DNA from: Enterobacteria phage KhF3
DNA: 64,000 nucleotides
Reading direction: 5' to 3' (one strand)
Sequence record: KT184315.1
Shown here: positions 4,591 through 8,514 of the stretch, one piece after another
Position numbering within the stretch: the stretch's first letter is position 1
How the letters are laid out: each line of letters starts with the position of its first letter
The notes under the pieces: generated by a model
The model's input: only the letters and a program-made list of their open reading frames with translations
Database searches by the model: none
What the model was told of the DNA's origin: nothing
Translations under genes and position numbers: made by a program

Positions 4591-6975
4591 TTAAGCAGTT
4601 CTTACCCAAGCCATTAACTTGTAGAACTGGTTAGTAACACTGAATGCTGAACCAGAACCTGTACCACCAGTGTTACCACTAACTGTATGAGTGTGAGCAC
4701 CGATACCTACAGAGTGGGTGTGAGCACCAGTGTTACTTGTAGTACCAGACCATGTGTGTGTATGGTTACCAGTTGTGTTAGTGTTAGGGAATTTGTTATC
4801 TTTTCTATCAAGCCAGTCAAGAGTTCTTGTCTTGCTGTTGCTAACAGTTGTGTAACCATACTGAGCATCACCACCATTAACCAATAGCAGACCTAAGTGG
4901 TGAGCATGGTTACCCGCAGCACTTGTTGTACCACTTACAGTGTGGGTGTGACCACCAGTACTATTAGTGCTCTTCGTACCATAATCAAAAGATGAAGTGG
5001 TAGCAGAGAAGCTGTGAGTGTGTGATGGTAAGTTACCAACAGCTAATGTTACAGAATCTGAACCACCAGTTGTAGCAACATCTGAACCGTTAGCTGCTGC
5101 GATTCTGATAGTTCTACCAACACCATTGTTCAGGTACGTCCAAGTTAGACCAGGGAGTGCTGTATTAGGGTTAACATTACTGTTAAACCACGTTACAATA
5201 CCAACTGGATAGATTTTGTTAAGGTCTGTAGAGTCACTAATTGCTGTTGCAATTTTCTGGTCAGTTTCAGCTTTAGTGTATGCACCAATCTCTGAAGGGG
5301 TTGGTTTAAAATCAGTTGTGTAAAGCTGTGCCTCTCCGGCATAGTCACCATTTTTGTCATAGGCATAGGTAAATGTTGCCAGTCCATTTGAGCCATACAC
5401 AAAAGAGATTCCTCTTGCATGTGCAGCAGTCTTATTAGAGTGAGCAACATGAATTGCCAATTCTCTCAGTCCACTAGCAACCTGATTGTTTCTGACAAAA
5501 CCTGAATATCCAAGATTAAAACCTGAAGGGTTTTCAAGGTTATCTACAGAAACAGTCATTAAGGATTGGTTTAATAACTGAGTTTTAACAAAATATCTAG
5601 CATCTAAGTTAGACCAATCAGAAGGTTGAACTTGACCAGTAATGGTTAGGTTCTTATTAGCCTTAATCGCTGAAGGCATAAGAGTAATTTGAGTCCCAGA
5701 GTAGCTGTTGTTTAATGCCACATCAGTAGAATTTGTGCCACCCACACCTACCCACCACCTAGATACATTCTGGGTATCAACACCACGGATATATTGTGGC
5801 TGCCCCTGTGTTAAGTTTCTTAATACTACGCCTTCATTATTTGATACAATAGTTTGCACATTCACAAATGTGTTAGCAACATTAAGCTTAGGTAGGTTAC
5901 TCAAAGTTGCTGCCGGAATATATCTAGAGTCAATATTAGTCCAATCCGAAGGTTGAACTTGACCAGTGATTCTGAAGTTCTGGTTGACTGAGATATAGCC
6001 ATTATCAAGTCTGATATTTGAACCGTGTACATAGTTGTGTAGCAGCACAGAGGCTGTGTTATCCCCGTTCCCTACATACCACCTGTTAGTGTTCTGAGAG
6101 TCAACACCCTGAATGAATAGTGAGCTAGTTGTTGCATTTTTCAACCTTAAAGCAGCACTGTCACTGATAATAAGTAGGTTTCTGCTAAACGTGTTAGTGC
6201 CAGTGAAATTGTTATTCGCAGCTAACTGTGCAAATCTCTGATTAGCTACTGTCTGAGTAAAGTATCTAGCATCTAAGTTAGAGAAGTCAGAAGGTTGAAC
6301 TTGACCAGTGATTGCTAAAGACTTATTAACAGAGACATTACTTGCAACAGTCAAGGCTGAGTTGTATTTGTTATTGTACAGCTTTACTTCGTCAGAGCCA
6401 TTACTACCAATACCAACCCACCATCTAGCCGAGCCATCTAGGTTTACACCTTCGATATATTGTGCATTATTTGCATTTTGGTTTCTAAGGCGAAGTAAGT
6501 TAGCATCACCTTGAATATTTTGTGTTCCAGAGAATGTGTTTGTGATAGCTAGTCTTGCATACCTTGCATCATTCTCTTCATTAGTTCTCATCCCAAGTTC
6601 ATTAGGGCTTGGCTTATTCAGAGTATGATAAACAGTTGCCGACCTTGAAGTGTCTGCAATAGTCAGTTTAAGGCCATTTGCGTTGATTTTAAAAGTCTTT
6701 AAAACATCCCCAATAGTAACCTCAGAAGAGCCTGTTGGGTTAAAGACTACCTTACCACCATAAAGTAACTTAACAATCCCTAAATCACCCGTCATAGTAC
6801 TACCGGCAATCTGAACAAATCTTTCAAGTTTAAAAGATGCTAAGAAATCTTGATAGGTCATTCGACGGTCTTCATCACCTAGCATTTCAGGTCTCTTTTT
6901 AACCCTGACATGAAGAAGGTCATCTGAACGGATTGTATCGATTGAGTTTAATTCACTCAACTTGTAATCTGCCAT
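4591..6975 (-). CDS. Tail fiber protein (long)
   Basis: 794 aa; three internal ~100-aa repeats each ending ITGQVQPSDW/FxNxDxRY; C-terminal His-rich GNHTHT...GAHTHSVGIGAHTHTV motif shared with adjacent fiber. Confidence 0.75.
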   Translation of the reverse strand: MADYKLSELNSIDTIRSDDLLHVRVKKRPEMLGDEDRRMTYQDFLASFKLERFVQIAGSTMTGDLGIVKLLYGGKVVFNPTGSSEVTIGDVLKTFKINANGLKLTIADTSRSATVYHTLNKPSPNELGMRTNEENDARYARLAITNTFSGTQNIQGDANLLRLRNQNANNAQYIEGVNLDGSARWWVGIGSNGSDEVKLYNNKYNSALTVASNVSVNKSLAITGQVQPSDFSNLDARYFTQTVANQRFAQLAANNNFTGTNTFSRNLLIISDSAALRLKNATTSSLFIQGVDSQNTNRWYVGNGDNTASVLLHNYVHGSNIRLDNGYISVNQNFRITGQVQPSDWTNIDSRYIPAATLSNLPKLNVANTFVNVQTIVSNNEGVVLRNLTQGQPQYIRGVDTQNVSRWWVGVGGTNSTDVALNNSYSGTQITLMPSAIKANKNLTITGQVQPSDWSNLDARYFVKTQLLNQSLMTVSVDNLENPSGFNLGYSGFVRNNQVASGLRELAIHVAHSNKTAAHARGISFVYGSNGLATFTYAYDKNGDYAGEAQLYTTDFKPTPSEIGAYTKAETDQKIATAISDSTDLNKIYPVGIVTWFNSNVNPNTALPGLTWTYLNNGVGRTIRIAAANGSDVATTGGSDSVTLAVGNLPSHTHSFSATTSSFDYGTKSTNSTGGHTHTVSGTTSAAGNHAHHLGLLLVNGGDAQYGYTTVSNSKTRTLDWLDRKDNKFPNTNTTGNHTHTWSGTTSNTGAHTHSVGIGAHTHTVSGNTGGTGSGSAFSVTNQFYKLMAWVRTA

Positions 6976-7021
6976 TATAAATTTTCCTCTTAAAAGGGGC
7001 TATCAAGCCCCTGTAAAGAAA

Positions 7022-8209
7022 TTAAGCTGTTCTCTGCCATACATACAGTACGAAGGATGGCTGCTCAATGTTGAAAGCTTGTCCTCCACCAACACTATTA
7101 GTGTTCCCGCTATGCGTATGTTCAGAAGAAGAAACTGTTACAGTACCATTATGTGTATGCGAACCAATACCAACTGTGTGGCTATGAGCACCAATACCAA
7201 CCGTATGGTTGTGGTTACCAGTTGTGTTAGTGGTAACACTGAAAGAGTGAGTGTGTGCACCAGCTACTTCACAGACAGCATCTGCTGAGTACCATGATTG
7301 GTCATTCCTTGAAGACCAAACCATTGCAGGTCTTTCCGATAAACCACCACCTGATTCATAGGTCAATCTGTGGTTATGAGCACCAGCAGAACTTGTTGAC
7401 CCACTACCAACATGGTTGTGGTTACCAGTTGTGTTAGTGGTCTTAGTTCCATAGTCAAAAGAGTTGGTAGTCTTAGTCCCATAGTCAAAAGCTGAAATTG
7501 ACACCGTTGCATTATGAGTATGACCACCACCACTAAGAGACACAGAGTGAGAGTGTTGAGGCATGTTATTAACTGACAAAGTGACAGTTGAAGCACCAAA
7601 TACAGAACCTGCTGGTCTTGTGTCAGAGTCATAACCAACCAATGCTCTACCTTTTGAAACTAACTCCCAAGTTCCTCCACAAATTAAATACGTAGAAGGG
7701 TTTGCAGAGTTCATGGAAAGATGGATAGTACCTACTGGATAAGAAGCCTGAACAGCCTTGTACAAGTTATTTACTGCTCTTGCTGTAGCATACTTATCTG
7801 CATCTTCGTTATAAAGGTTAGATGTTGTCCAGTTCTGAACATTACTCAATCCTACCTGTGCCTTAGTTGTATTATGTGGGTTGCTCTTGTCCTGAATATG
7901 CTGTTGAACAAGATTATTAACCTCTTCTGAAGACATAATCTGTAGATTTGCTCTTGCCTGAGCTACATTAGTAACGTCTGATAAGTTATTTGCAGCAACT
8001 AACTGAAGAGCATTGATAACGTTATCTAAACCAATTTGTGTTTTAGTAACACCATGAGGGTTATTTCTTAGGCTTGAGTGTGGAGCAAGTAATTGCTCAA
8101 GAGTGCATCTCTTATCCTCAATACCTTGTTTAAGATGGAAGATATCACTAAGGTCAATTGGTAAGGCTGCTTGAGGCAAGGCACTAATTTGAATTTCACC
8201 TACTGCCAT
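7022..8209 (-). CDS. Tail fiber protein
   Basis: 395 aa; same C-terminal HxH-rich module (GNHNHTVGIGAHSHTVGIGSHTHNG) and identical last residues ...QRTA. Confidence 0.75.
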   Translation of the reverse strand: MAVGEIQISALPQAALPIDLSDIFHLKQGIEDKRCTLEQLLAPHSSLRNNPHGVTKTQIGLDNVINALQLVAANNLSDVTNVAQARANLQIMSSEEVNNLVQQHIQDKSNPHNTTKAQVGLSNVQNWTTSNLYNEDADKYATARAVNNLYKAVQASYPVGTIHLSMNSANPSTYLICGGTWELVSKGRALVGYDSDTRPAGSVFGASTVTLSVNNMPQHSHSVSLSGGGHTHNATVSISAFDYGTKTTNSFDYGTKTTNTTGNHNHVGSGSTSSAGAHNHRLTYESGGGLSERPAMVWSSRNDQSWYSADAVCEVAGAHTHSFSVTTNTTGNHNHTVGIGAHSHTVGIGSHTHNGTVTVSSSEHTHSGNTNSVGGGQAFNIEQPSFVLYVWQRTA

Positions 8210-8211
8210 TA

Positions 8212-8514
8212 TTAAGCTCCTACAAATTCATAAGTATAAAGATTTCTTGTACTTGTTGATGCAGTACCTGTTTCAGTCTTGATAAGGTTCCACCCATTAG
8301 CCACTAAATCTGGTTGCTCAGTGGCAAAAGACCTAACTTCACCAACAGTCCCATTTGCTTTCTTAAGAAGATAGTTCAAGATATAGTTAAACCATTGGCG
8401 ACCCATAGGTTCACCTCTTAATAAACCAGTTGCCTGAATTTCTGGTGGTGGTAATACTTTTAGCTGGTTACCATCAGCATCTACTTCATCTGTAGACCAA
8501 TTTAAAAATGCCAT
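8212..8514 (-). CDS. Tail fiber N-terminal/adaptor protein
   Basis: 100-aa ORF ending 2 nt before the tail fiber start; position between baseplate genes and fiber. Confidence 0.45.

Follow-up and report, generated by a model that had tools for sequence, protein, structure and literature searches.

The closest described counterparts of the fibre locus treated here are those of Bas63 (Escherichia phage JohannRWettstein; PDB 9NDY) and of Shigella phage Sf14, a Mooglevirus. Bas63 carries a short tail fibre of 430 angstrom (gp26) and a long tail fibre of 630 angstrom (gp27), the latter in 0-6 copies per virion, and the long fibre contains five beta-helix repeat domains separated by helix-turn motifs, which its authors liken to the T4 gp34 rod (PMC12609058). 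Why beta-helix repeats 2-5 vary so much was left as a question, for which relaxed constraint, variable host recognition and recent escape mutation are the possibilities offered (PMC12609058). In Sf14, two fibres are likewise preceded by a small protein (PMC11821841). Here we analyse the corresponding genes of Enterobacteria phage KhF3 (sequence record KT184315.1), which occupy positions 4591-8514 of a 64,000-nucleotide stretch of DNA, hereafter called the window. The architecture of this locus is already known from the two structural papers on Bas63 and Sf14, both of 2025, and from long-standing GenBank annotation. Our addition is modest and consists of an analysis of the exchangeable cassettes, of the age of their alleles and of their linkage, which touches the question left open for Bas63.

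The DNA of the window is 98.3% identical to that of Enterobacteria phage XTG1 and matched 246 phage records, nearly all of them Felix O1-like (from E. coli, Salmonella, Shigella and Citrobacter hosts), which by sequence assigns the phage to Felixounavirus, the Felix O1-like myophages. The locus very probably represents a host-recognition module made up of two tail fibres and a small fibre-docking protein. Hereby, three back-to-back open reading frames (ORFs) on the minus strand, encoding 100, 395 and 794 amino acids (aa), are found exactly where an initial annotation of this DNA had placed them (Table 1), and upstream of them lie the wedge genes (Baseplate_J-like and DUF2612-like). The order wedge 2, wedge 1, 100-aa platform, fibre of about 390 aa and fibre of about 790 aa is the same in 29 related loci; the 285-aa neighbour protein matches PDB 9NDY_J, designated 'Wedge protein 1'. 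Relative to Bas63, wedge 2, wedge 1, platform, short fibre and long fibre are 99.6, 96.8, 99.0, 75.7 and 61.0% identical, respectively. That both larger proteins are tail fibres, as initially annotated, is borne out by their PHROG tail-fibre matches and by their Bas63 homologues gp26 and gp27, which were seen as fibres by cryo-electron microscopy (cryo-EM).

The long fibre had initially been described as carrying three repeats of about 100 aa, each ending in the same motif with a tryptophan. The repeats are real, while the motif needs a slight correction: it reads ITGQVQPSD(F/W)xNxDxRY and occurs at residues 222, 336 and 445, with F instead of W in the first copy. The three units of about 110 aa (R1 to R3) are 39-46% identical to each other, with Smith-Waterman scores 24 to 35 standard units (z) above those of shuffled sequences, and the Pfam family PF20744 (gp37_trimer) matches three stretches of the protein with 259.5 bits (cut-off 21.7; E = 1.4e-78). 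A BLASTP search of the long fibre against itself returned the full-length self match only. Within R2, residues 275-344 match the structure of the T7 gp17 C-terminus (PDB 4A0T, E = 1.2e-6). The domains flanking the three repeats, residues 40-138 (R0) and 471-585 (R4), also resemble each other (z = 7.6). Three repeats and two similar flanking domains therefore give a shaft of five domains of two types.

As a means of finding exchanged modules, alignment with the fibres of related phages had been suggested in the initial annotation. To this end, 33 loci anchored on the platform gene were fetched and 25 complete fibre pairs were aligned to the window, giving 26 phages in total, and sequences of a given block were assigned to one allele at a cut-off of 80% identity. 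The alignment reveals a sharp alternation of conserved and variable blocks, the variable ones being four shaft domains and both heads. Identity in the long fibre stays at about 75-95% over residues 1-140, in each of the three linkers, over the collar (561-680) and along the final 34 residues, and it drops to 20-55% in the bodies of shaft domains 2-5 (141-220, 261-340, 361-440 and 461-560) and in the head (681-760). In the short fibre, a steep drop in identity is confined to the head (261-340, 21-57%), and the flanking needle is affected more mildly (65-83%). Each variable block falls into 9-16 discrete alleles among the 26 phages, with 11-16 alleles in the shaft slots. Pairwise identities are bimodal, i.e. 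either at least 80% or between 20 and 50%, with almost nothing in between.

These alleles are combined in many ways. The same allele is found in different backgrounds, and the graph of allele combinations contains cycles (e.g. R2A-R1B-R2B-R1C-R2A). The ends of blastn segments cluster at the linker edges and at the His boxes, with breakpoints near residues 257-264, 317 and 331 of the short fibre and near 678-685 and 749-755 of the long fibre. Suitable repeated DNA is present at both kinds of site: the linker DNA of 70 nt occurs three times within the long-fibre gene (77-84% identity, with an exact core of about 20 nt), and an exact 21-nt His-box repeat is common to both fibre genes. In one pair of phages, nucleotides 432-721 of the long-fibre gene (slot R1, locus L015) correspond to nucleotides 1101-1390 (slot R3) in locus L010 (94.1% identical DNA over 290 nt), which shows that a cassette can change its slot. 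In locus L005, the heads of the short fibre (7306-8472) and the long fibre (8523-10871) are identical at 55 of 65 positions, which indicates an exchange between the two fibre genes; the two heads of the window phage are unrelated alleles. Exchange also appears to reach beyond the genus. Residues 659-765 of the long fibre are identical to gp37 of Tequatrovirus SHBML-50-1 at 94 of 107 positions (88%) and the flanks are just remotely similar. By tblastn, which aligned only residues 703-765 of this cassette, the long-fibre head matches four Tequatrovirus phages (five records). Tequatroviruses with such a needle and head in gp37 are BYEP01, SHBML-50-1, AV122 and sutha (see also loci L034, 3501-3808, and L035, 3501-3805). 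The four variable shaft domains and both heads thus behave as exchangeable cassettes, by a crossover mechanism that we infer from the aligned sequences, in line with the initial proposal that the repeat modules are sites of recombination.

The alleles are, moreover, much older than the backbone. Synonymous divergence (pS) between alleles amounts to 0.66-0.74, compared to 0.25-0.30 in the backbone, and at four-fold degenerate sites of identical residues 0.52-0.59 differ between alleles, compared to 0.12-0.22 within. It is this near-saturated synonymous divergence from which the greater age of the alleles follows.

To describe how the cassettes are associated, phage pairs sharing alleles were counted and compared with permutations; this comparison covers 24 distinct allele combinations, a small sample in which kinship was ignored. 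The long-fibre head is shared by 20 phage pairs, 15 of which also share the short-fibre head (permutation mean 2.1, P<0.001). Adjacent shaft slots, in contrast, are unlinked (1/27 pairs for R1-R2, 1/12 for R2-R3 and 2/20 for R4 and head). The records in GenBank give a similar picture for the window's own heads. Its short-fibre head allele is present in 31 records, of which only one, a Salmonella phage record of 70.9 kb, is not Felixounavirus-sized; its long-fibre head recurs in about 27 records of Felixounavirus, for the most part from the same phages. Paired heads and unlinked shaft slots suggest co-selection of the two heads and some other pressure on the shaft cassettes.

A more far-reaching reading, possible but far from assured, is that the shaft forms a combinatorial cassette array and not a passive rod. 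Hereby, ancient alleles in four slots (at least 11-16 per slot) would reassort freely at the linker DNA and hop between slots, while the heads, about 2.4 kb apart, would stay paired. If this applies, the one fibre locus is subject to two separate kinds of selection: the host surface would select the two heads jointly, and the shaft surface would experience a diversifying pressure independent of this, e.g. from a host defence, an exclusion system, an antibody or a secondary glycan contact. This would answer the question of the Bas63 paper as to why beta-helix repeats 2-5 vary so much.

Alternatively, as the initial annotation had suggested, the three repeat cassettes could themselves determine host range, e.g. 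as side-on glycan binders. Diversifying selection would be expected to yield alleles like theirs, which are numerous, old and maintained, and variable host recognition is among the possibilities named for Bas63 (PMC12609058). Yet their homology places them among shaft domains like those of the T7 gp17 pyramid or the T4 gp34 rod, and their association with the head alleles is weak at most, that between the two heads being strong. This difference in association points to the heads as the co-selected specificity elements. The variable heads are more likely specificity determinants than the repeats, and we regard host-range determination by the repeats as unlikely. The receptor reported for Felixounavirus is lipopolysaccharide (LPS), and a receptor-prediction preprint places the genus in clades recognising O-polysaccharide or LPS moieties.

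In a second alternative, corresponding to the first and third possibilities of the Bas63 authors (PMC12609058), the shaft would have varied without recombination, through relaxed constraint or through rapid point mutations on a single inherited backbone. It would agree with a domain count that stays at five and with the nearly constant cassette length of 78-81 aa. However, synonymous sites are as diverged as non-synonymous sites between alleles, and the resulting allele age counts against relaxed constraint as well as recent escape mutation, i.e. against two of the three explanations in that paper. The near-absence of intermediate identities, the recurrence of alleles across backgrounds with cycles in their graph, the lack of linkage between adjacent slots and the cassette found in slot 1 of one phage and slot 3 of another all speak against it too, which makes this alternative very improbable. 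A diversity-generating retroelement or an invertase shufflon was also considered as the source of variability and rejected on account of the saturated synonymous sites and of the neighbouring genes, which are baseplate, DHFR-like and thymidylate synthase genes.

Homology between the C-terminal parts of the two fibres extends over about 255 aa (35% identity, E = 4e-23). The initial annotation had described both ends as rich in HxH motifs (two histidines separated by one residue) with near-identical termini; the HxH-rich segments are indeed common to both fibres, while the near-identity holds for the last five residues (WVRTA and WQRTA) and not beyond those. Six HxH motifs are present in the long fibre, at residues 652, 676, 690, 738, 752 and 761 (three each on the outgoing and the returning strand), and nine in the short fibre, at residues 219, 230, 264, 278, 319, 333, 342, 351 and 364 (four outgoing, five returning). 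Both tips match the structure of the T4 gp37 tip (PDB 2XGF; E = 5.9e-19 for residues 646-773 of the long fibre and 2.3e-26 for residues 146-367 of the short fibre) with the HxH motifs aligned. The collar family PF21939 (Gp10_C) scores 68.6 bits on the short fibre (cut-off 27) and, at 24.1 bits, stays below the cut-off on the long fibre, where the region is nonetheless homologous to that of the short fibre. Judged by these alignments, both fibres end in a T4 gp37-type tip. The initial guess of a metal-binding trimerisation or receptor-binding tip thus appears, by analogy to T4, to have been right, the module being of the gp37 collar, needle and head type. In the T4 gp37 tip, an intertwined trimer, iron is octahedrally bound by six histidines from three chains. 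For T4, binding of iron by the HxH motifs and of the receptor by the head is described, and HxH-bearing gp37-like tips are present on both Bas63 fibres, where iron was inferred (PMC12609058).

The histidines are conserved in a manner that fits such a needle. Each HxH retains both of its histidines in 18-25 of 25 related fibres; neither histidine is ever lost without its partner, and motifs are lost only as out-and-back pairs. For instance, the facing motifs 690 (outgoing) and 738 (returning) are both absent in six fibres, which is the number of fibres with only four HxH. The possibility that the His-rich segments are low-complexity sequence without a specific role, suggested by a composition rich in G, T, S and H and by a BLAST filter that masks part of the region (query residues 1-44 unaligned), is refuted by this conservation and by the one-to-one alignment with the iron-binding HxH motifs of a solved structure, and none of 20,000 shuffled versions of these sequences attained the observed HxH counts (mean 0.5 to 1.6, maximum 7, for the long fibre 5). 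As a separate observation, residues 241-258 of the short fibre (7433-7491, minus strand), on the outgoing needle strand, are a tandem duplication of the 10-aa unit FDYGTKTTN(S/T), which is single or double in T-even gp37 proteins.

For the 100-aa ORF, the initial annotation had left open whether it is a separate adaptor or a split N-terminus of the short fibre, and only the former holds. The protein is 99% identical to Bas63 gp25 and matches the deposited chain S of PDB 9NDY, 'LTF platform protein (gp025)'. In the cryo-EM structure, a gp25 trimer on wedge protein 1 forms the long-fibre platform, and the fibre that it carries is the long one rather than the product of the adjacent short-fibre gene (PMC12609058). 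The junction reads GGAGCT TAA TA ATG, so that the ORF does end 2 nt before the ATG of the 395-aa ORF, as initially noted. It closes with a double stop (TAA TAA), the second of which is overlapped by the next ATG, and with GGAG preceding, the 395-aa gene therefore has its own Shine-Dalgarno sequence and start codon. A detached N-terminus, arising from a frameshift or sequencing error or rejoined by programmed frameshifting, would draw on this 2-nt gap and on a non-significant hit (E = 1.2) of the 100-aa family profile in the N-terminal part of 9cuy_c, a short tail fibre from another phage, and it is refuted by conservation: the ORF is separate with the same spacing in 29/29 close loci, all 34 homologue clusters in a collection of 5.8 billion proteins are stand-alone (89-114 aa, none fused), and the 9ndy_S chain is a separate 100-residue protein that binds wedge protein 1 and carries the long fibre.

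With the positions of platform and fibres in the virion taken from the two structural papers (PMC12609058, PMC11821841), the following assembly can be proposed. A trimer of the 100-aa 'LTF platform' on wedge protein 1 would anchor the N-terminus of the trimeric 794-aa long fibre, while the trimeric 395-aa short fibre would dock directly on wedge protein 2. In the long fibre, the five beta domains of the shaft, three of the gp37_trimer or T7 gp17-pyramid type and two flanking ones of a second type, would be split by conserved helix-turn linkers. In each tip, a collar would lead into a six-stranded beta needle, with the chain running out to a small distal head and back, so that the C-terminus, W(V/Q)RTA, would again lie at the collar. 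Each HxH, contributed by three chains, would form one octahedral iron site stapling the needle, which predicts six sites in the long and nine in the short fibre, and the head would bear the receptor-binding surface, presumably for LPS. If the shaft is built from self-contained trimeric domains on conserved linkers, cassettes can be swapped without breaking the fibre. Homologous DNA for crossing over would hereby be provided by the conserved linkers and the His boxes, whether exchange takes place among phages, from slot to slot, from one fibre to the other or with T4-like phages.

Several points weigh against this overall picture. The T4 gp37 tip requires the chaperone gp38. A tblastn search with gp38 found no gp38/Tfa homologue in the 64-kb window, the remainder of the genome lying outside it, and among 345 phage records with a gp38 match, 0 of 40 sampled were Ounavirinae-sized. 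Tequatroviruses that share the long-fibre head with the window phage, unlike the latter, encode gp38 directly after gp37. The Sf14 authors also state that no chaperone homologue is encoded (PMC11821841). Folding of the tip must therefore differ from T4 in some way. Furthermore, side chains could not be modelled in the weak fibre densities of Bas63, and the model of its platform is limited to a C-alpha trace (PMC12609058). Iron binding, contact of the head with the receptor and the order of binding are carried over by analogy from T4 and Bas63. The cassette analysis covers 26 genomes in one alignment, and misalignment in divergent cassettes could inflate pS, an effect limited by the four-fold-site test.

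The features of the locus are compiled in Table 1. They include a hairpin in the spacer between the two fibre genes, which is present in 27/27 loci with a constant stem, a variable loop and a fold energy of -13 to -18 kcal/mol. It may be a weak terminator or attenuator; a terminator scan does not flag it because its T run has only four T. Some GenBank records label the hairpin a terminator. It might lower expression of the long fibre relative to the short fibre, which would fit the variable number of long fibres per Bas63 virion.

Table 1. Features of the fibre locus; positions refer to the window and residues to the respective protein.
Feature	Position	Strand	Evidence and remarks
Platform gene (Bas63 gp25 homologue)	8212..8514	-	9ndy_S, E 1.6e-65 (residues 1-100); phrog_4141 over 100/100 positions
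Short tail fibre gene, 395 aa (Bas63 gp26 homologue)	7022..8209	-	phrog_2097 tail fibre, 8.6e-137; Pfam Gp10_C, 1.4e-18; 2xgf, E 2.3e-26
Short fibre, N-terminal baseplate-binding and helix-turn region, residues 1-140	7790..8209	-	87-99% identity per 20-aa bin in 25 related fibres; role according to the Bas63 paper
Short fibre, needle with 9 HxH enclosing the head, residues 219-366	7112..7555	-	motif positions, 2xgf match, conservation
Short fibre, variable head cassette, residues 261-340	7190..7429	-	mean identity 0.21-0.57; 9 alleles in 26 phages
Hairpin GGGGCT-TGAT-AGCCCC followed by TTTT	6992..7011	-	in the 46-nt spacer between the fibre genes (7022 to 6975)
Long tail fibre gene, 794 aa (Bas63 gp27 homologue)	4591..6975	-	phrog_4277 over full length, E = 0; gp37_trimer x3; 2xgf, E 5.9e-19
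Long fibre, baseplate-binding domain and first shaft domain R0, residues 1-138	6562..6975	-	85-95% identity per bin; R0 resembles R4
Long fibre, R1, residues 139-248	6232..6561	-	variable beta-domain cassette, then conserved linker ending ITGQVQPSDFSNLDARY; 11 alleles
Long fibre, R2 cassette and linker, residues 249-361	5893..6231	-	14 alleles; 4a0t match
Long fibre, R3 cassette and linker, residues 362-470	5566..5892	-	16 alleles
Long fibre, R4, fifth shaft domain, variable, R0 type, residues 471-585	5221..5565	-	15 alleles, 99-161 aa
Long fibre, gp37-type tip (collar, 6-HxH needle, head, returning strand), residues 586-794	4594..5220	-	homology, 2xgf, HxH conservation
Long fibre, needle and head cassette common to gp37 of some T4-like phages, residues 659-765	4681..5001	-	DNA 84-86% identical to BYEP01 and SHBML-50-1

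Downstream of the long-fibre gene, two small membrane-type ORFs follow on the minus strand, at 4314-4511 (65 aa) and 3946-4317 (123 aa). Each has a hydrophobic N-terminus, the longer one also a coiled-coil-like region. Both belong to PHROGs of unknown function, with Bas63 gp28 (100% identity) and gp29 (97.6%) as their respective counterparts. Genes for fibre chaperones or for lysis are often located in this position after a fibre gene. At 3917-3940 lies a strong two-way terminator hairpin (AAGGCTCC...GGAGCCTT), where the minus-strand structural operon meets plus-strand genes, among them thymidylate synthase at 3010-3909 (named after the Bas63 annotation) and an ORF at 2463-3008 judged by eye to be DHFR-like (dihydrofolate reductase-like). 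In two of the related loci, L007 (8523-10866) and L019 (8528-10898), the long-fibre gene is present as two ORFs (453 and 311 aa, and 541 and 259 aa, respectively). The Bas63 authors regarded the long fibres of phages Si3 and EC6 as likely to be incomplete (PMC12609058). Felixounavirus fibre DNA is also found, with 87-88% identity, in records labelled Campylobacter phage (A132, A126) and in one Staphylococcus record, probably as a result of mislabelling or contamination.

Felix O1-type phages serve for typing Salmonella, for biocontrol in food and for therapy, and it is this locus that sets their host range. The cassette map provides natural, structure-compatible junctions, i.e. linkers and His boxes, for swapping heads or shaft domains in host-range engineering. 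It also shows that the shaft, whose variability had been unexplained, varies by the reassorting of old alleles and not by drift. As the architecture has been published, the window itself adds only one more allele combination, that of a 9-HxH short fibre with a long-fibre head shared with some T4-like phages.

Compared to known systems, the locus is most similar to that of Bas63, with which it shares gene order, gene lengths, two fibres with gp37-type tips and a long-fibre shaft of five domains. It differs from Bas63 in a short fibre of 75.7% identity with nine instead of seven HxH and in a long fibre of 61% identity, where neither the head nor any of the four variable shaft slots carries the Bas63 allele. 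The motif with the extra histidine is HAHH in the window, compared to HHNH in Bas63. In Sf14, gp51, gp52 and gp53 correspond to the small protein and the two fibres (391 and 792 aa), and the long fibre likewise has T7 gp17-pyramid-like domains and a T4 gp37-like tip, with no chaperone homologue; the small protein was undetected in Sf14 virions by its authors (PMC11821841). Sf14, however, belongs to another (sister) genus, and the R1-R3 region is about 39% identical. The ancestry of the platform is given as gp9-like by the Bas63 authors (PMC12609058) and as 'Homolog of T4 gp11?' by the Sf14 authors (PMC11821841). T4 gp9 (the long-fibre socket) and T4 gp11 (the short-fibre interface) are thus candidate relatives, and comparisons of the platform family profile with either were insignificant.

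With the T4 gp37 tip (2XGF) the fibres share the succession of collar, needle and head, the serial HxH motifs and a C-terminus that returns to the collar. Unlike in T4, the fibres that bear the tips are much shorter, consist of a single protein and are joined directly to a simple baseplate; two different fibres of one virion have such a tip, with six and nine HxH compared to seven in T4. Other than the gp37_trimer, T7 gp17 and T4 gp34 domains, the shaft domains here are arrayed in tandem, are joined by highly conserved linkers and exist as numerous alleles that have diverged deeply and reassort. Finally, module swapping in T-even adhesins was reportedly described by Tetart and Krisch in the 1990s as taking place at conserved motifs, including the 'His boxes' of gp37. 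The present locus resembles these adhesins in that similarity breakpoints lie at His boxes and other conserved motifs, whereas exchange here also spans four shaft slots, two fibres of one phage and phages of two families.

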